Positions 2,441 through 39,938 of a stretch of 64,000 nucleotides of DNA are shown here, one piece after another (positions within the stretch are counted from its first letter, which is position 1; each line of letters begins with the position of its first letter). Under the pieces are notes generated by a model. It was not told the DNA's origin and ran no database searches. It was given only the letters and a program-made list of their open reading frames with translations. A program made the position numbers and the translations under genes. The stretch is from a phage. The stretch lies in sequence record PZ452583.1. The stretch is one strand, 5' to 3'.

Positions 2441-3641
2441 ATTTTGTAATAATGTCAAACTGTTCTTTAAAGCAGAAGCTTGAATCTTGATGCTGATACA
2501 AAAATTCATAAGCTTTTTCGCGTTCACGGTCATAAAGAGTTCGGTCAGATGACAGTTCTTTAATACGCTCGAATGTTGATTCCATGTCATTTTCATCAAA
2601 CCAAATGATACCGCTATCATGCGAGGTCAAAGGAGTATTATCAACACGGAATTTTAAATTTTCGCCAGTAGATTTCCAAAATACCGGAATTGTTCCACAT
2701 GCACCAAGCTCGAGATGAGTATATTCTAAAGAACGTTGTAGATATTTTTTGTCCAACTTACTCAGCTGATAACCAAAACCGGATTTACTCATGCGTTCAA
2801 GCATTTCGCTATTTACATAACGGTCAAGAATTTGCGTTGGCAAATTAGGAGCAATTTTAATTTGGTCTACTTGATGAAGACGATAATACTCGTATGGAAT
2901 TCCTTTTTCTTTAATAGGAATGAACGCTGGAGAACGTTCCAGACCTTCCATAATAGTACTTAGTCCTGCAGGTTTAAGATGTTTTTCATGAAAATCAAAC
3001 ATCTGATAAAAACCTTTCCATGTAGTCGTACGACCAATCCAACGGTTGATATTCATGTTAATTTCAGAAACATCTTTCCAGTAGGTTGACCGAACCTTCG
3101 CAATATCCATAGGAGGCTGAAAGTTATATACTGTCGGTGCTTCTTCAATATCATCAAACAGAGAAACTGTTTCAGGATACCATTCTTTCATCAGAACTTT
3201 ATTAAAATCACCATTATCAGAATGGCTAAAAATAACATCAGCTCGACGAACAGTTTCTTCTAATCCCAAATTTCGGCGCAAAGAAAGAGAAGAATGGTCA
3301 TGTTGATAAACTACAACACGAACAGAAGGTTTAATGTTATCAATAATTTTTTTATAGTTATTAATAGTGTCTTCTTCAACCGAAGTAGCAGGAACTGAAT
3401 TGATAATTAGAATATCACAATCATTTACCAGCTTAAGTGTTTTATCATATTCTTTTGCCAATAAAACCGGAATTGAAAATGATTTATAATCATGCGCGCA
3501 ATTACGAGTAAATGATTTATCTTTAGCATAAACCAAAGTTACTTCATGACCATTTTTAATAAACCAATCACGTTGCTCGAGTGAGAATTTTGTTACACCA
3601 CAACCTTCAAGACCTCGAGCCATAAAAATACATACTTTCAT
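2439..3641 (-). CDS. a-gt: DNA alpha-glucosyltransferase
   Basis: 400 aa; N-terminus ...CIFMARGLEGCGVTKFSLEQRDWFIKNGHEVTLVYAKDKSF matches T4 alpha-gt as recalled; position between 47 and 55. Confidence 0.88.
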   Translation of the reverse strand: MKVCIFMARGLEGCGVTKFSLEQRDWFIKNGHEVTLVYAKDKSFTRNCAHDYKSFSIPVLLAKEYDKTLKLVNDCDILIINSVPATSVEEDTINNYKKIIDNIKPSVRVVVYQHDHSSLSLRRNLGLEETVRRADVIFSHSDNGDFNKVLMKEWYPETVSLFDDIEEAPTVYNFQPPMDIAKVRSTYWKDVSEINMNINRWIGRTTTWKGFYQMFDFHEKHLKPAGLSTIMEGLERSPAFIPIKEKGIPYEYYRLHQVDQIKIAPNLPTQILDRYVNSEMLERMSKSGFGYQLSKLDKKYLQRSLEYTHLELGACGTIPVFWKSTGENLKFRVDNTPLTSHDSGIIWFDENDMESTFERIKELSSDRTLYDREREKAYEFLYQHQDSSFCFKEQFDIITK

Positions 3642-3692
3642 TTAATATCCTCTTTGTTTTGGTTTATTTTACCAAAAATTTATAAAGCAATA

Positions 3693-3710
3693 TAGGAGCC
3701 GAAGCTCCTA
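3693..3710 (-). terminator. Tetraloop hairpin (UAGGAGC-UUCG-GCUCCUA) followed by a U-rich tract, upstream of a-gt
   Basis: 7-bp stem read in sequence; U-rich run downstream on the minus strand. Confidence 0.45.
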
Positions 3711-3821
3711 TCCACATAATACGCCATACAGAGGCTCATTAGAACTTTTAAATTTTATGCGCTTATATTTTATAGTTCCTTCTGCTTTAGCTTTATCATG
3801 AGACTCTTTAAAGAGTCTCAT
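3708..3821 (-). CDS. Possible 37-aa basic small ORF starting inside a 30-bp palindrome
   Basis: Hand-translated MRLFKESHDKAKAEGTIKYKRIKFKSSNEPLYGVLCG; SD GAGGAA 3 nt upstream; could be non-coding. Confidence 0.25.
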   Translation of the reverse strand: MRLFKESHDKAKAEGTIKYKRIKFKSSNEPLYGVLCG

Positions 3822-3824
3822 GAT
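3795..3824. repeat. Perfect 30-bp palindrome ATCATGAGACTCTTTAAAGAGTCTCATGAT, followed at 3825-3840 by a second inverted repeat TTCCTC-TTTA-GAGGAA
   Basis: Read directly; both 15-nt halves are exact reverse complements. Confidence 0.8.
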
Positions 3825-3884
3825 TTCCTCTTTAGAGGAACGAATTTTATTATAATCTATTTCAGAAGTCTGGGTGTTCATCTT

Positions 3885-4594: not shown

Positions 4595-5135
4595 ATAAAA
4601 AATCCAAACTAGGAGAATCGTCTACAACACTTTTCTTTTCAGCCCCCGGTGTTCTATAGGTTGATTCTTCGTAATGCGTCATTTTATCGTAGATGTCTTG
4701 AATAAAAGTTTCATCTACTAACGCAACCATATCGTCGTCACGACTGTCATAGACATTGTGAACGAAGTAACTATATTTCTTTGCAACTTCCTTACGTTCT
4801 TTTTTAATACGCTGGACGAATGCATTAAAACAAGCTTGAGTTATATATGCATGTGGGTTTTTATATTTCGTTTCATCAAAATTATGAAGCCCCTTAATAG
4901 AAGCTTCTATACCATCTGCAATCATTTCTTGTTTCCAAGACTGGGTGTATCCTGAAAAGTTGAAACGTTTAGATAAGCCTTCTGCAATAAGCATAATGGC
5001 TAATCCGATAGTATCATTCTGACGAACTACTTTATTTGGGTCTTTATTATTTGCTAATTCTGTTTTCCAATCAATAATAGCTTGTAAAAGCTCTTTATTG
5101 TTTACGTAATTATATTTAGGCTTAGTTTCTGACAT
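4578..5135 (-). CDS. 55: Late-transcription sigma factor gp55
   Basis: 185 aa from ATG 5135 ([23 protein letters not shown]...YEAND) matches T4 gp55 as recalled; the ORF-track start at 5141 is an upstream GTG. Confidence 0.93.
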
Positions 5136-27389: not shown

Positions 27390-27668
27390 TTATTCTTTAA
27401 ATCTAATCAATTTATTCATAGACTTTGAAACTTCTGCACGAACCTCATGTAAGTTTTTAAGCTGTTCAAGACGCTGCTCATAGTAAGCAATTTCATCTTC
27501 TTCGAGACAGTCCTGTGAATCTTCTTTAAGATAACGTGCATAGTCCTGAAAAGCTTTACGGACTACTTCCTGGAAGTCATCAAGACTTTGAATTTTCTTA
27601 GGAGCGGCAGATACACGACGAGGTGCAGTATAATACTCATAACCAAACCCTGCACTTAATTGAGCCAT
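27390..27668 (-). CDS. Hypothetical protein, 92 aa (vs.3 position)
   Basis: ORF-track start is GTG at 27710; ATG 27668 overlaps upstream stop (TAATG). Confidence 0.5.
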
Positions 27669-27934
27669 TAGTATTTTTCCTCTGGTTGGAACACTGCACG
27701 ACAAGCCCACATACTGGCTTCTTTGAGTTTCGTTTTAGCAATAGTTAACTGATCGAGGCTTTCAGCATAATTCTTCGCGAGTTCATCATCTTCACAATTA
27801 TCTAGTGCTTCCCAGAATTCATCGTATAAAGCGTCAAAGATAAGTCCTAAACGAACTTCAGCGTCTTTAATAGCATTCACTTTACCGATTTTCTCTTCAG
27901 TATGCGGCTTATAACCTTTAATGTCTTCAATCAT
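27668..27934 (-). CDS. Hypothetical helical protein, 88 aa, at the T4 vs.4 position (possible Acb2-like)
   Basis: ORF-track start is TTG at 27970; ATG 27934 has SD GAGGA; Acb2 suggestion is synteny-only and rests on my recollection that T4 Acb2 is vs.4. Confidence 0.45.
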
Positions 27935-28148
27935 ATTTGACTTCCTCACCAGTACATAAATCATATTCAACTAAACGAATAGGTTCATGAATGCCATATC
28001 CTTGAACAGAAATTTCTGTCGTAGGATAAATTCCATCAATATCACCCATATTCCAGGCTTCATTAAATTGCTGTTCGCCTGAATTACTAAACCACTCGGC
28101 GAAAGCATTTAGCACATCTTTAGAACCTTCAATAATTATCTTTGCCAT
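27927..28148 (-). CDS. Hypothetical protein, 73 aa
   Basis: ATG verified. Confidence 0.5.
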   Translation of the reverse strand: MAKIIIEGSKDVLNAFAEWFSNSGEQQFNEAWNMGDIDGIYPTTEISVQGYGIHEPIRLVEYDLCTGEEVKYD

Positions 28149-28510
28149 TACAAACTCTCAGTAAAGGTACGAGCAATAACGTCGCGCTGCTGTTCCGGAG
28201 TCAGAGAGTTAAAGCGAACTGCATAACCTGATACACGGATGGTCAGCTGCGGATATTTTTCCGGATGCTTAACTGCATCTTCCAGAGTTTCACGACGCAG
28301 AACGTTAACGTTCAGGTGTTGACCACCTTCAATTTTAACTGTAGGCTGTTGCTCAATTTCAATTTCACGGGCATGCAAACCATAGAAAATTTCTGGGTCT
28401 ACAAAAGAGTCCTCTTTAAAGGTTTTAGAGACAATAATTCGTGCTTGAATACCATCTTCAAAATAAATAGTACCTTTATGTGTGCCTTCAAGAATTTGAT
28501 ATGCTTTCAT
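28148..28510 (-). CDS. Autonomous glycyl-radical cofactor (GrcA/YfiD-like; T4 Y06I-like)
   Basis: 120 aa; C-terminal glycyl-radical signature RVSGYAVRF; a T4 YfiD homologue (Y06I) is known. Confidence 0.85.
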
Positions 28511-28517
28511 ATAAACC

Positions 28518-28847
28518 TCAATTAGAAAATAAATTTATCCAAGATTGTTCTTTAATTAAAAATGGCTCAGAATCATATGCCATTAAACTTTGGGTGATTA
28601 GTCCTTTAAAAGGCCCATCAATAAATTCCATGGTAAAATATGGAATTTTATTCATTAGCCGTGCATTAGGAGCAGTACACAAAACTCTGCATCCTTTGAA
28701 TACGCCTTTTTGTAATTTGTATTGCTTGGGATAAAATTCGCTCAAAATGTTATTATTTGCTAAAATTTCAAAATGATTCACCAATTTATTTTTAATAGTT
28801 TTTGGCGAAAAATAAAGATATTCGAAAAGCTGAGTGTCTGTCATCAT
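28518..28847 (-). CDS. Hypothetical protein, 109 aa
   Basis: ATG 28847 forms ATGA overlap with upstream stop; alternative ATG 28898 would overlap the upstream gene by 55 nt. Confidence 0.45.
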
Positions 28848-29440
28848 TGCATTCCGATTACGAAAAACTGTGGACGAGTAATACCACCAATGCAACATTT
28901 ACTATTGCAGCAGTGTTGCACAGTTTCAATATGAATATCGTAAATTTTATCCATATCAGGAGATTTAACAGGCTCATCAATTATATACAAAATTCGTGAA
29001 AGCGATAAACCTCTGAACTTGCTACCTCTATTACCAATAAAACTGCGCACAGAATCAGTAAATAAACGAAAACGTATATCATCATTAGAATAACGCGAAA
29101 ATTCCTTTTTAATGTTATTTGCAGAAATTTTAGCGTAAGCTGAAGTATTAGATAGAACAATAACTGTTCCGCCATCATACAGCCAATTAGCAGCAAAGTT
29201 AGTCACAGCAATTGATTTACCGGATTGACGTCCACCATCTATACGAAGTGTACAGTACTGTTTAAGTAATTCTTCAAATGGCGGGATATATTCGTTTTTA
29301 CAAATTTCTTCTACTCTAGCATCAGAATGGTGTGTAAAAGCATTCATCAGGGATAGATACGGGCCAGTTAAAAATGTTCTCATATTTTCTCTCTTAATTT
29401 TTGGGCCATTCCATGGCACATGAGTTGTCCATTCCTGCAT
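28844..29440 (-). CDS. Small P-loop NTPase-like protein, 198 aa (alternative start ATG 29383)
   Basis: Walker A GGRQSGKS and Walker B-like YIIDEP. Confidence 0.55.
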   Translation of the reverse strand: MQEWTTHVPWNGPKIKRENMRTFLTGPYLSLMNAFTHHSDARVEEICKNEYIPPFEELLKQYCTLRIDGGRQSGKSIAVTNFAANWLYDGGTVIVLSNTSAYAKISANNIKKEFSRYSNDDIRFRLFTDSVRSFIGNRGSKFRGLSLSRILYIIDEPVKSPDMDKIYDIHIETVQHCCNSKCCIGGITRPQFFVIGMQ

Positions 29441-29518
29441 TACCCATTACCGCGCTTTGGCTCGACCTTATCACAGGTTGGCGGGAATACCTCAAATGAG
29501 GTCCAGGCTGTTCCCATA

Positions 29519-29992
29519 TTATTTGAACGATTTAACGTACTGAATAGAACCCTTACTATTCACAAAGGCAATTTTACCATTTTTATTATACATGGTAGCA
29601 GTACGCTGATAACCATAGGTTTGTTTACCAGATTGATAACCAACTAATGCAAAATTATCTTCACCCATTTTATTCTGTTTAGCGCGAATGCGTTCATGAC
29701 CATGTGCCATAAGAACCTTAGCATCACCAGTTGCAATGGATCGACGAGTTTTTTCATCTTCAACTGTATTAACAAAGTCGTCAAATGAATCAAATTTAGC
29801 ATGAGATTTATTATACAGTTTTCCATCTACTGCATAATTATATCCTTGTACATCCATCTCAACTTCTGTACCATCATCCAATACAGCAGTGATTTTTTGA
29901 CCTTTTTTAAATTTCAAAAGATCAGTAAAAGATTCAGCAATAATTTGAGAATTAATAGCTGCTTCAGTAATAAATTCTTGATATGTTTTCAT
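29519..29992 (-). CDS. Internal-protein-like capsid-packaged protein, 157 aa
   Basis: N-terminus MKTYQEFITEA is the T4 IP capsid-targeting sequence with a gp21-protease-type cleavage motif; 9 bp downstream of denV. Confidence 0.7.
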   Translation of the reverse strand: MKTYQEFITEAAINSQIIAESFTDLLKFKKGQKITAVLDDGTEVEMDVQGYNYAVDGKLYNKSHAKFDSFDDFVNTVEDEKTRRSIATGDAKVLMAHGHERIRAKQNKMGEDNFALVGYQSGKQTYGYQRTATMYNKNGKIAFVNSKGSIQYVKSFK

Positions 29993-30001
29993 GGGTTTCC
30001 T

Positions 30002-30418
30002 TTAAATGTAAATATTTTTACCGTAATACTTATACCAATGTGGTTTCATTAAAATTTTTTCATCAAGTCGTTGTTGACTCAATTTAATAGCTGATTTGCA
30101 TGGATTATAATCATTTTTCCATTCTACTGGAATATCGCTGATGTCAGGAACTTCAGTATCTTTTATACTGAACCCGCGTTTTAAGCATTCCGTTATAATG
30201 TCTAATTGACGCTTTCGCAAAAATTCTAACTTATCGTAAAAGAACGTAACATGACCAGAACCTAAAATAAACTCGGAAGATATTTTAAAATCTTTAACGC
30301 GCTTACCGTTTGCCACATGCTTACGAACTATACCAAAAACACGCGGCAATTCACGGTATTCTGCGATTAAATGTTGATCAGCAAGTTCAGATACTAAAGT
30401 CAAATTAATACGAGTCAT
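30002..30418 (-). CDS. denV: Endonuclease V (pyrimidine-dimer DNA glycosylase), diverged from T4
   Basis: 138 aa; [29 protein letters not shown]... matches T4 DenV N-terminus, C-terminal half diverged. Confidence 0.9.
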
Positions 30419-30443
30419 TTTATCCCTCCAATTAACTGTGAAT

Positions 30444-30473
30444 ATACTATCACAATTCTAGGAGAAAGTAAAC
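30444..30473 (-). promoter_or_regulatory. T4-type early promoter upstream of denV (GTTTAC, 18 bp, TAGTAT)
   Basis: Read on minus strand; -10 flanked by TGTGA / TCACA inverted repeat. Confidence 0.55.
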
Positions 30474-30477
30474 AACT

Positions 30478-31446
<969 letters not shown>

Positions 31447-34861: not shown

Positions 34862-35335
34862 TTATTTGATTTGTTTAGCAGACCAAATGCGGTCTTTAAT
34901 AATTTTTTGGATGTCTTCAACATACTCAAGAGAGTGAGCATGTGGGTTATCTTTGAAACTATAAGCACGAGCTAGCTTTTGGCCTTCAGTTTTGATTACT
35001 AAAAGCTCTTTAAGGATAGCTTCATATTTGGAGATAATTCCTTTAACAATATTTTTCTCTTGTGCGACTTTAGGATCTGCTTTAGGAGCAGGTTTACCTG
35101 AAGCCTTTGCAAAAGCAGCGCCAGTAGCAACTAAACTTTTCCAGGCCATACTAACAGCATTCCCCGTAAATCCTTCTGCTTTCATGTCGCGAGCAAATTG
35201 GAATCGTGATTCATCAGAAGCATCTTTATAGGAATATTTACCCGCTGCAATGGCTGCTTTTGCGACAGCTTGAATTTCGGTGCTAGACGCTTCATTTAAC
35301 ACCGCTTCATTTAAAAATTGAGCATATGATTTCAT
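34862..35335 (-). CDS. Internal-protein-like capsid-packaged protein, 157 aa, in a repeat-flanked cassette
   Basis: N-terminus MKSYAQFLNEA resembles the IP capsid-targeting sequence; own late promoter; near-identical terminator hairpins on both sides. Confidence 0.65.
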   Translation of the reverse strand: MKSYAQFLNEAVLNEASSTEIQAVAKAAIAAGKYSYKDASDESRFQFARDMKAEGFTGNAVSMAWKSLVATGAAFAKASGKPAPKADPKVAQEKNIVKGIISKYEAILKELLVIKTEGQKLARAYSFKDNPHAHSLEYVEDIQKIIKDRIWSAKQIK

Positions 35336-35371: not shown

Positions 35372-35379
35372 TATTTATA
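35372..35379 (-). promoter_or_regulatory. Late promoter TATAAATA for the IP-like gene
   Basis: Exact TATAAATA on minus strand about 37 nt upstream of ATG 35335. Confidence 0.6.
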
Positions 35380-36089: not shown

Positions 36090-36165
36090 TGGTCGAGGCA
36101 GTAGGGATCGAACCTACGACCTAGGACTTAGAAGGTCCTTGCTCTTCCTTCTGAGCTATGCCCCG
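36090..36165 (-). tRNA. tRNA-Arg (anticodon TCT)
   Basis: Hand-folded cloverleaf, 76 nt, CCA encoded; anticodon loop CTTCTAA; T-loop GGTTCGATCC. Confidence 0.85.
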
Positions 36166-36169
36166 TAAT

Positions 36170-36245
36170 TGGGGTGACCGATGGGAGTCGAACCCATGAC
36201 TACGAGAATCACAATCTCGAGTTCTACCAACTGAACTACGGCCAC
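36170..36245 (-). tRNA. tRNA-His (anticodon GTG); no encoded G(-1)
   Basis: Hand-folded cloverleaf, 76 nt; anticodon loop TTGTGAT; CCA encoded. Confidence 0.8.
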
Positions 36246-36359
36246 ATTAATATCTACTCCAACAATCATGATGTCTTCACACGAAATTAAGAGAAGAGTG
36301 ATCAGTTAAACCCTTATAATCGCGTCAAGTAGATATTAATGTGACAGTTGTCACAAATT

Positions 36360-36434
36360 TGGCGGACGTGATAGGATTCGAACCTATAACCAATCGCTTA
36401 ACAGGCGATCGCTCTGCCATTGAGCTACACATCC
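36360..36434 (-). tRNA. tRNA-Asn (anticodon GTT)
   Basis: Hand-folded cloverleaf, 75 nt; anticodon loop CTGTTAA; CCA encoded. Confidence 0.8.
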
Positions 36435-36438
36435 AAAT

Positions 36439-36525
36439 TGGTGGGGAGTGGTGGAGTCGAACCACCCGAGTCGCAATGACAATGAATTTACAGTCCACAC
36501 CGCTACCTCTACGGGATAACTCCCC
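36439..36525 (-). tRNA. tRNA-Tyr (anticodon GTA), long variable arm
   Basis: 87 nt; acceptor GGGGAGT/ACTCCCC; anticodon loop CTGTAAA; CCA encoded. Confidence 0.75.
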
Positions 36526-36537
36526 TAATTCATAATT

Positions 36538-36612
36538 TGGTGGCCCTGGGTGGAATTGAACCACCATCTGGCGATTATGAGTCGCTTGCTTGAACCTTCC
36601 AGCTACAGGGCC
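36538..36612 (-). tRNA. tRNA with anticodon CAT (elongator Met, or Ile if lysidine-modified as in T4 tRNA-Ile)
   Basis: 75 nt; acceptor GGCCCTG/CAGGGCC; anticodon loop CTCATAA; CCA encoded. Confidence 0.75.
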
Positions 36613-36613
36613 T

Positions 36614-36689
36614 TGGTGCTGATTGACGGAATCGAACCGCCGACCTTCTCATTACAAGTGAGTTGCTCTACCTACTGAGCTAAATCAGC
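36614..36689 (-). tRNA. tRNA-Thr (anticodon TGT)
   Basis: 76 nt; anticodon loop CTTGTAA; CCA encoded. Confidence 0.85.
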
Positions 36690-36694
36690 AAAAC

Positions 36695-36784
36695 TGGCGG
36701 AGGCGATAGGATTTGAACCTATGAGTCGCCGGAGCGACTGCCGGTTTTCAAGACCGGTGCATTAAACCACTCTGCCACGCCTCC
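36695..36784 (-). tRNA. tRNA-Ser (anticodon TGA), long variable arm
   Basis: 90 nt; anticodon stem-loop CCGGT-CTTGAAA-ACCGG; CCA encoded. Confidence 0.85.
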
Positions 36785-36786
36785 AG

Positions 36787-36860
36787 TCTCCATACAAGGA
36801 TTTGAACCTTGGACCTCCTGATCCCAAATCAGGCGCTCTACCAAACTGAGCTACACGGAG
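36787..36860 (-). tRNA. tRNA-Pro (anticodon TGG); 3' CCA not encoded, 2 nt from tRNA-Ser
   Basis: 74 nt; anticodon loop TTTGGGA; Pro-Ser dimeric arrangement as in T4. Confidence 0.8.
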
Positions 36861-36870
36861 TAAATTAAAT

Positions 36871-36944
<74 letters not shown>

Positions 36945-36949
36945 AAATT

Positions 36950-37036
36950 TGGTGCGAGAAGTGGGACTCGAACCCACAAGGAAATCATTCCGCAGCATTT
37001 TAAGTGCTGTGCCTTTACCAATTTGACCATTCTCGC
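36950..37036 (-). tRNA. tRNA-Leu (anticodon TAA), long variable arm
   Basis: 87 nt; anticodon stem-loop CAGCA-CTTAAAA-TGCTG; CCA encoded. Confidence 0.85.
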
Positions 37037-37042
37037 GTTATA

Positions 37043-37651
37043 TTATTTATTACGTGAAAAAGACTGTTCTATCAATTCTGGACACTTTCGTTCTATCCAT
37101 TTTCTAGCTTTTTGTGGGCTTATACCTATTATTTTAGCAGCTTTACTAACCCATCCAAATTTAGAATAATCGATTTTAACTAATTCTTCGTAAATTTCAT
37201 TAGTTAAAATCTTTTCATTAATATTTACCAGTAAATGATATAATTTGTTATCATTAGCAATTTTAATGAATCTTTTATAGTTTCCGCCTTTACTTAAACC
37301 TAATGAAGTAATTGCAGATGATATAGTAGCCGAATTTAATAATGCGTTTAAAATTTCTTCATCACTAACATTATAACGCTTTTTATTATTTTTAATATTT
37401 TTACCAGCAAAAGTATCAGTTTGCGAATGACAGTTTGGACATAATAATCTTAAATTTGATTTAAGATGATTTTTGTTATTTCCATCAATATGGTCTAATT
37501 GCAGAACAATATGCTTATTTTGCCATTTTGAAATTTTACAAATTGCACACTCATATGGAAAAATATTTTCTTTTATTATTTTGTCTTTCAGCTTTCCTGT
37601 ACTAAAATTTGGATGTTTTCCTTCAAAAATTTCAGCTAATTTAGTATCCAT
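37043..37651 (-). mobile_element. HNH homing endonuclease, 202 aa, 7 nt upstream of tRNA-Leu
   Basis: HNH core CAICKISKWQNKHIVLQLDHIDGNNKNHLKSNLRLLCPNCH plus C-terminal helix-turn-helix-like region; ORF-track start is TTG at 37675, first ATG 37651. Confidence 0.8.
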
Positions 37652-37750
37652 AATATGATTCCCAATTATTAACAAAGGCTCTCAAATAAGAACCCTTGAT
37701 GATAGAGGGTATTAATCAGTGCGGTATGAGTTAATAATAACAAATAATTC

Positions 37751-39634: not shown

Positions 39635-39690
39635 GGTAATAGTATCACTACTAAAACCCCGTGTAAACAACTTTGTGAAATTATTTTAAA
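39635..39690. repeat. Promoter-plus-stem-loop direct repeat, copy A (47/56 identical to 39966-40021), downstream flank of the IPI-like gene
   Basis: Shares GGTAATAGTATCACTAC and GTGTAAACAACTTTGTGAAATTATTTTAAA with copy B; contains early promoter 39639..39668. Confidence 0.7.
39639..39668 (-). promoter_or_regulatory. T4-type early promoter (GTTTAC, 18 bp, TACTAT)
   Basis: Read on minus strand; -10 flanked by AGTAGT/ACTACT inverted repeat. Confidence 0.6.
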
Positions 39691-39938
39691 TCTTCTAATC
39701 GTTTCTTCATCTTAGAACCATTTTTAGCGATTTCTCCTGCGTCAGAGCATAATGCTAAAAGTGCTTTAACTTTAGTTTGGTCTCCTTTAAAAGACGAAGG
39801 ATCGACTGCAGCAGCAAGTTCTTTAATACGAGAGAAAAGACGCTCAGCTTCAGCTAAAGCCATTCCAAGCTTTACTTCCATACCATGAGAAGATTCAGTG
39901 ATAATAGTTTCTGTAGCAAACTCTTTATAAGTTTTCAT
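39681..39938 (-). CDS. Internal-protein-like capsid-packaged protein, 85 aa, at the T4 ipI position
   Basis: N-terminus MKTYKEFATE matches the IP capsid-targeting consensus; adjacent to 57B; flanked by promoter-containing direct repeats. Confidence 0.65.
   Translation of the reverse strand: MKTYKEFATETIITESSHGMEVKLGMALAEAERLFSRIKELAAAVDPSSFKGDQTKVKALLALCSDAGEIAKNGSKMKKRLEDLK

Follow-up and report, generated by a model that had tools for sequence, protein, structure and literature searches.

In phage T4, the internal protein (IP) IPI* has a capsid-targeting sequence, undergoes processing by gp21 and is injected; it inhibits GmrS/GmrD of E. coli CT596 and serves as the model for IP action. The T4 proteins Ip1, Ip2 and Ip3 each inhibit one distinct type IV restriction enzyme of the GmrSD type and do not cross-protect (PMC12373910). 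For IPIII, the first 10 residues are enough for packaging, and among them positions 4 and 7 are important in targeting and positions 8 and 10 in processing by the gp21 prohead protease (PMC9026906), and the annotation of GenBank X04567 marks residues -10 to -1 of both IPII and IPIII as the peptide removed. In the T4 reference sequence (NC_000866), IPII and IPIII begin with MKTYQEFIAEA and IPI begins with MKTFKEFTSTT. T4-like phages also possess PeSLs, mobile regulatory cassettes composed of a promoter and a stem-loop (Arbiol et al. 2010, PMC2839356).

Here we analyzed a 64,000-nucleotide stretch of phage DNA (sequence record PZ452583.1, hereafter the window), which belongs to a mosaic Tequatrovirus ~97% identical over 24 kb to phages such as AndreasVesalius. 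An earlier note on this DNA had pointed to an internal-protein-type gene lying between denV and the ORF in the vs.8 position, and had proposed that the IP repertoire was swapped and relocated relative to T4. Our analysis indicates that the gene is very probably ipIV (Ip4), the known internal head protein gene of T2-type Tequatrovirus phages, in its normal place within the variable e-vs.8 interval (Table 1).

Identity and distribution of the gene behind denV

The gene opens with an ATG start codon, and an AGGAAA ribosome site is found within the 9-nt spacer behind the denV stop codon. Residues 1-157 of the product align with profile positions 1-158 of Pfam DUF7412 (319 bits, the cut-off being 27; E 5.7e-96), and the full length matches PHROG 3155, "internal virion protein" (E 6e-102), bearing out the proposal of an internal-protein-type gene; a search of NCBIfam returned sub-threshold noise alone. 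The gene ipIV/Ip4 was reportedly first described by Repoila et al. in 1994, and our search of the searchable literature found no functional study of, or experiment on, its product. The ipIV product of phage T2 (NC_054931, "ipIV: internal virion protein") is 100% identical to the window protein over its full length, as are Ip4 of RB32 and ipIV of Yersinia phage PST. RB18 is also among the carriers of an identical protein named ipIV/Ip4, and the homologues of RB51, wV7 and Kha5h display 99.4% identity. Judged by these sequence matches, the product is a member of the known Ip4/ipIV family and, judged by its sequence features, a T4-type internal protein. The gene is already known: it is named, it is represented in Pfam and PHROGs, and it occupies its usual position across hundreds of genomes.

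The similarity of Ip4 to T4 IPII and IPIII is limited to the first ~11-13 residues, and Ip4 as an orthologue of either was rejected. BLASTP matches to the two proteins were carried by the N-terminus, local alignment behind residue 11 gave shuffle z values at the level of noise (1.3 for IPI, 2.55 for IPII and -0.59 for IPIII), and the mature parts of IPII and IPIII had no match anywhere in the 64-kb window. A profile scan revealed no match of Ip4 to Pfam IPI_T4, and membership of the IPI* nuclease-inhibitor family was discarded as well, there being neither an IPI_T4 match nor a common fold. The earlier note had set the gene apart from T4 IPII and IPIII and had looked to these two alone for a full-length match; the alignments indeed show no similarity beyond residue ~11, yet the protein is a known and named one, 100% identical to ipIV of T2.

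Searching 50,697 phage records by tblastn, we found Ip4 in 471 of them, 291 at 99% identity or more and ~160 at 60-80% identity, the latter being Klebsiella and Salmonella T4-like phages. The same database held T4 IPIII in 261 records, T4 IPII in 198 and a further, 105-aa IP (described below) in 190; the IP repertoire of T4 is a minority state. T4 and many of its relatives lack ip4. A wide homologue search of 1.84 billion representatives yielded only three distant full-length members of the family, each of which has a targeting-like N-terminus. It returned no homologue from cellular organisms, and a weaker match, to a repeat protein of 684 aa, was ascribed to chance.

A first structural model of Ip4, built with 13 close homologues, reached a pLDDT of 50, and addition of two 34%-identical members gave a model with pLDDT 86 and pTM 0.80. 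The latter agrees with the independent BFVD model of UniProt Q38388, "Ip4 [Enterobacteria phage K3]", a protein 99% identical to the window Ip4 (TM 0.96). Foldseek comparison of the model with the PDB gave nothing at E <= 0.001, and a PDB sequence-profile search gave nothing below E 0.24, so the predicted fold appears to be without a convincing match to any solved structure at the thresholds used.

Table 1. Positions of ip4, its neighbors and related features in the 64,000-nucleotide window
Feature	Position	Strand	Basis or remark
vs.8 homologue, bounding the variable interval downstream	28844..29440	(-)	PHROG 1488
ip4-vs.8 spacer with G+C-rich stem-loop	29441..29518	(-)	predicted fold -21.8 kcal/mol
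ipIV / Ip4	29519..29992	(-)	157-aa precursor; ORF, DUF7412 and PHROG 3155
Linker AAINSQIIAE, codons 11-20 (low confidence); possible second cleavage site I-A-E↓S	29933..29962	(-)	E20 invariance
Capsid-targeting sequence MKTYQEFITE, codons 1-10, ending in a gp21-type I-T-E↓A	29963..29992	(-)	match to T4 IPII/IPIII
Conserved junction block	29961..30020	(-)	~60 nt: last 19 nt of denV, ribosome site and targeting codons
denV (endonuclease V), divergent allele	30002..30418	(-)	Pfam Pyr_excise, PHROG 1183; stop 9 nt before the ip4 ATG
e-denV spacer, 59 nt, no ORF	30419..30477	(-)	GTTTAC...TAGTAT early-promoter-like sequence overlapping a PeSL-like stem-loop
Gene e (T4-type lysozyme), bounding the variable interval upstream	30478..30972	(-)	Pfam Phage_lysozyme; 97% amino-acid identity to T4 e
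Two perfect late-promoter motifs TATAAATA	30986-30993 and 30999-31006	(-)	no others upstream of ip4
IP gene at the ipI locus, just after 57B	39681..39938	(-)	85 aa, MKTYKEFATETIITE... (MKTYKEFATET...); PHROG 3499

Targeting sequence, predicted processing and expression

The N-terminus of Ip4, MKTYQEFITEA, matches MKTYQEFIAEA of T4 IPII and IPIII at 10 of 11 residues, A9T being the sole change, and the near-exact match to the T4 capsid-targeting sequence reported earlier was thereby confirmed. Ip4 keeps Y4 and F7, the positions of targeting, together with I8 and E10, those of processing. When all six frames of the 64 kb were scanned with up to four substitutions allowed, the motif turned up only twice, at 29992 and 39938, in both cases at the ATG of a minus-strand ORF. 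The gp21 cleavage motif (L/I)-x-E is present in Ip4 at residues 8-10 and 18-20 only; the predicted site is I8-T9-E10↓A11, from which we infer that gp21 cleaves Ip4, and trimming after E20 (I-A-E↓S) is possible. E20 is invariant in 14 family members, including 34%-identical ones, and E10 is nearly invariant; residues 12-18 have pLDDT <50 in the predicted model. The computed mature protein has a mass of 15.5-16.5 kDa and a pI of ~9.1-9.3, basic like the T4 IPs, with 22 K+R against 17-18 D+E.

The distant members of the family (34-42% identical, from other T4-like phages) possess an N-terminal variant, MNFxxFLNES, in which the Glu is kept, and one of them lies in a T4-like context with dNMP kinase, 57B/Acb1 and a vs-type ValRS modifier. 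Since these members carry a variant of their own lineage with the Glu retained, the N-terminus of the family appears to be selected and not merely copied. Mass spectrometry of virions of the purified Klebsiella phages ValerieMcCarty03 and ValerieMcCarty04 listed gp127/119, "internal virion protein", at 66/66 (PMC13119998). VMC04_119 is an Ip4 homologue (69.8% identical) encoded directly after an e-type lysozyme, and its presence among the virion proteins means that packaging of the Ip4 family is supported by published data, in another phage.

The pair of late promoters before e is also found in T4, T2 and slur02, and no late promoter stands directly before the IP genes in these three phages. 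No late-promoter motif occurs between e and ip4 in the window, and a scan of the region for sigma-70 promoters and terminators, which could have revealed a promoter of ip4 itself, performed no better than shuffled sequences. The stem-loop in the e-denV spacer has a predicted fold of -16.8 kcal/mol; the same promoter/stem-loop element is located after e in T4 and T2, with a copy between T4 ipIII and ipII, and its early-promoter-like sequence would confer early-promoter activity. With no late promoter between e and ip4 and a stem-loop behind e, late expression of ip4 requires read-through, and late co-transcription of e, denV and ip4 from the promoters ahead of e is plausible.

Besides ip4, the window carries an IP gene at the ipI locus, the product of which matches PHROG 3499, "internal head protein" (E 3.7e-50). 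No match of this product to Pfam IPI_T4 was found, indicating that the window phage is without a T4-type IPI, the inhibitor of CT596 GmrS/GmrD. A further minus-strand ORF of 157 aa at 34862-35335 begins with MKSYAQFLNEAVLNEA, which resembles a targeting sequence, contains two L-N-E↓A sites and is basic (pI ~9.5); a perfect late promoter TATAAATA is located 37 nt upstream (35372-35379, minus strand). Between e.8 and rnaC the window has a ~520-bp insertion that T4 lacks, flanked by 35-bp repeats; the ORF lies within it, and the product of this ORF belongs to PHROG 2280 (unknown function), with 512 matching phage records and the annotation "hypothetical protein" in every match listed. On these sequence features it is a candidate for an unannotated third internal head protein. 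The tRNA cluster of the window, which together with an adjoining ORF covers 36090-37036 and 37043-37675 on the minus strand, comprises 10 genes (Arg, His, Asn, Tyr, Met, Thr, Ser, Pro, Gly, Leu), whereas T4 has 8 and a different set, and immediately upstream of it lies an ORF with an HNH-like cysteine/histidine motif.

Probable cassette exchange in the e-vs.8 interval

The earlier note gave the T4 order as e-ipIII-ipII-denV-vs.8, which is correct in the T4 reference, and it rightly placed the gene of the window between denV and the vs.8 homologue, with an e-denV gap empty of ORFs. Its conclusion that the gene lies away from the T4 ipII/ipIII site did not hold. The e-vs.8 interval is the ipII/ipIII locus, and the piece that differs is denV, which lies upstream instead of downstream of the IP gene; of a repertoire swapped and relocated, the swap stands, and ip4 has kept its locus, the order differing only relative to denV. 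Nor did the layout prove unusual once the IP loci of other T-even phages were compared. The 2-kb block e-denV-ip4-vs.8 is covered to at least 80% in 200 phage records; among the best 30 matches, nine have the exact order of the window with no insert, and the only difference in the remaining 21 is a 334-bp insertion between denV and ip4. In Klebsiella phage ValerieMcCarty04 (Jiaodavirus), Ip4 is encoded directly after e, followed by an ipII-like gene and then a vs.8 homologue.

In slur02, an extra 105-aa gene (3510-3827 of locus L001, MKTYQEFIAES..., PHROG 3966) is located between denV and ip4, the 334-bp IP cassette being flanked by a 49-nt repeat that is a copy of the junction block described below. 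The gene is absent from the window, where denV (30002) and ip4 (29992) are adjacent. Slur02 and teqsoen are among its carriers, and its annotations vary from hypothetical to "internal head protein III" (SH7) and "putative internal head protein" (teqsoen), PHROG 3966 being of "unknown function".

Alignment with T4 revealed where the exchanged pieces end. Window 27500-29519, from vs.3 to the ip4 stop codon, aligns with T4 at 95% and the alignment ends at the T4 denV stop; the homology is interrupted from the ip4 stop codon (29519) to 30429, just after e, where alignment sets in again at 96%. The denV of the window is 77.5% identical to that of T4 in amino acids and 78.6% over 294 aligned nucleotides, compared with amino-acid identities of 97% for e, 97% for nudE and 99% for vs.7, and by its sequence it is a separate allele or cassette. 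T2 is without denV and displays a clean 421-bp gap that corresponds to window 30008-30428; in that phage ipIV directly follows e. With the denV cassette absent and an e-ipIV spacer nearly the same as the e-ipIII spacer of T4, ipIV of T2 sits in the ipIII slot. Downstream, the vs.8 homologue is identical to T4 Vs.8 at 173 of 198 residues and near-identical behind the N-terminus. It has 198 aa against 219 in T4, and its first ~38 residues are unrelated although the DNA aligns throughout, which suggests a difference in frame or start site from T4. The same product gives weak P-loop/terminase-like matches (AAA_14, PHROG 2) and is annotated as "terminase large subunit" in some records.

The junction block at the 5' end of ip4 is 93% identical to 4688-4747 of locus L003 from T4 (NC_000866), the ipII 5' region, and 91% identical over 47 nt to the 5' end of T4 ipIII. 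Every IP gene of the e-vs.8 interval begins with such a block of 47-60 nt containing the ribosome site and the targeting codons. The block is probably a recombination site for IP cassettes, and the promoter/stem-loop element behind e suggests itself as the second exchange point. The e-vs.8 interval is best described as one variable IP locus, in which cassettes, including denV, appear to be exchanged by homologous recombination, and the gene order differing from that of T4 probably arose by exchange at the 5' blocks of the IP genes and at the post-e element. A crossover within the targeting codons themselves, which a single synonymous difference (ATT/ATC, codon 8) could have indicated, was dropped as an over-interpretation, since T2 has the same ATT.

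The T4 ipIII-ipII spacer (4720-4790 of locus L003) was compared with window 29993-30020 and 30434-30471 and contains AAAAATATTTACATTTAA, which corresponds to the last codons, K-N-I-Y-I-stop, of a window-type denV and not to T4's own G-K-A-I-Y-A-stop. A copy of the post-e promoter/stem-loop precedes this denV remnant upstream of T4 ipII. The remnant of the denV 3' end together with the stem-loop copy suggests that T4 ipII probably once lay behind a window-type denV, and the order e-denV-IP may be the older one, with the T4 order derived. The junctions of the window offer a clean example of IP cassette exchange at a shared block of ribosome site and targeting codons.

Possible role of Ip4 and comparison with known systems

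We propose that the Ip4 precursor is made late, probably from transcripts initiated at the pair of late promoters that precedes e, and that its 10-residue N-terminal targeting sequence would carry it into the prohead scaffolding core, where gp21 would cut the targeting peptide off after Glu10 (I-T-E↓A), possibly with further trimming after Glu20 (I-A-E↓S). The basic mature protein (~15.5-16.5 kDa) would remain in the head with the DNA and, as we infer by analogy with the T4 proteins, be injected with it into the next host, where it most likely blocks a host defence as T4 Ip1, Ip2 and Ip3 do. T2 is restricted by the GmrSD systems of ECOR17 and ECOR21 (PMC12373910), and since T2 carries ipIV, any target of Ip4 would be something else. 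On this analogy, the most likely role of Ip4 is that of an anti-defence protein which is injected and acts on a target other than those of Ip1-3. The fuller proposal, that Ip4 is an injected inhibitor of a yet-unnamed host defence and represents a fourth specificity beside Ip1-3 with a fold of no known relative, is put forward tentatively, with somewhat less than even confidence. If it is true, the strong conservation of Ip4 among T4-like phages of Escherichia, Klebsiella, Salmonella and Serratia would point to a widespread and slowly evolving target. Among the T-even internal proteins without an assigned target, Ip4 is the most widespread, while Ip1-3 have all proved to be specific type IV restriction inhibitors, and the confident model of Ip4 with an orphan fold and its natural carrier T2 make it well suited to the same genetic screens.

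The same conservation, with identities of 61-82% between genera, is unusually strong for an arms-race protein, and a structural or assembly role is kept as a rival for that reason. Ip4 would in that case be packaged to serve the virion, by neutralizing the charge of the DNA or in core or head assembly, and not counter-defence. An excess of 22 K+R over 17-18 D+E in the basic mature protein would suit such a role, as would the lysine-DNA contacts documented for IPs (PMC3012670), the halved rate of head assembly on loss of IPIII in T4 (PMC9026906) and the abundance of an Ip4 homologue in virion mass spectrometry (PMC13119998); moreover, the family is found more widely than either IPII or IPIII, and identities of 99% or more in 291 records and of 65-82% in the Klebsiella and Salmonella phage genera are unusually high for a counter-defence gene. 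However, T4 and many relatives build normal heads without ip4, which rules it out as an essential structural component; the three T4 IPs tested so far are all specific restriction inhibitors (PMC12373910), and ip4 resides in an interval where cassettes are swapped, as is typical for accessory genes. We therefore regard a role confined to the virion as rather unlikely.

Two further readings deny either the packaging of Ip4 or its familiarity. The targeting-like N-terminus might be a by-product of recombination at the shared 5' block, Ip4 then being an unpackaged cytoplasmic phage protein; the block is common to the neighboring genes at the DNA level and reaches into non-coding sequence, and could spread regardless of function. 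This is very improbable given that the 34-42%-identical members have their own version of the motif, MNFxxFLNES, in which the Glu is retained, and that a 70%-identical homologue was found in purified virions (PMC13119998). That the gene is instead a novel or newly relocated IP special to the window phage, the mark of an unusual reshuffling of its IP repertoire, might be read from the order e-denV-IP, unlike e-ipIII-ipII-denV of T4, and from a similarity to the T4 IPs confined to the targeting peptide. It is refuted by the identity to the named ipIV/Ip4 of T2, RB32, RB18, PST and ~290 other records and by the e-denV-ip4-vs.8 order without insert in nine of the best 30 genomes; Ip4 is encoded directly after e, in the same interval, even in Klebsiella Jiaodavirus phages. 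An injected anti-defence protein encoded by a known cassette is the reading we prefer, and it can be set beside the described systems as follows.

Ip4 has in common with T4 IPII and IPIII the 10-residue targeting sequence (with A9T), the I-x-E↓A motif, the 5' DNA block, the e-vs.8 interval and a basic mature protein, whereas the mature parts are unrelated in sequence; the T4 genes lie ahead of denV and that of the window behind it, and the targets of IPII and IPIII are known (GmrSD of ECOR21 and ECOR17, respectively), unlike that of Ip4. IPI* of T4 is encoded at another locus, after 57B, in contrast to Ip4 between e and vs.8. As with PeSL cassettes, a promoter and a stem-loop are found at cassette borders, here after e (window, T4 and T2) and between T4 ipIII and ipII, and insertions and deletions start and stop at repeats; PeSLs were defined in RB49 and phi1 with GGGG...CCCC stems, whereas the repeat of this locus also holds the targeting-peptide codons, its promoter/terminator role being putative. 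The closest likeness is to ipIV/Ip4 of T2, K3, RB32, RB51 and PST: although T2 has a small ORF of another kind in place of vs.8, these proteins are 99-100% identical to the window protein over all 157 residues, their genes occupy the same interval after e, and the downstream neighbors are the same in most of the genomes.
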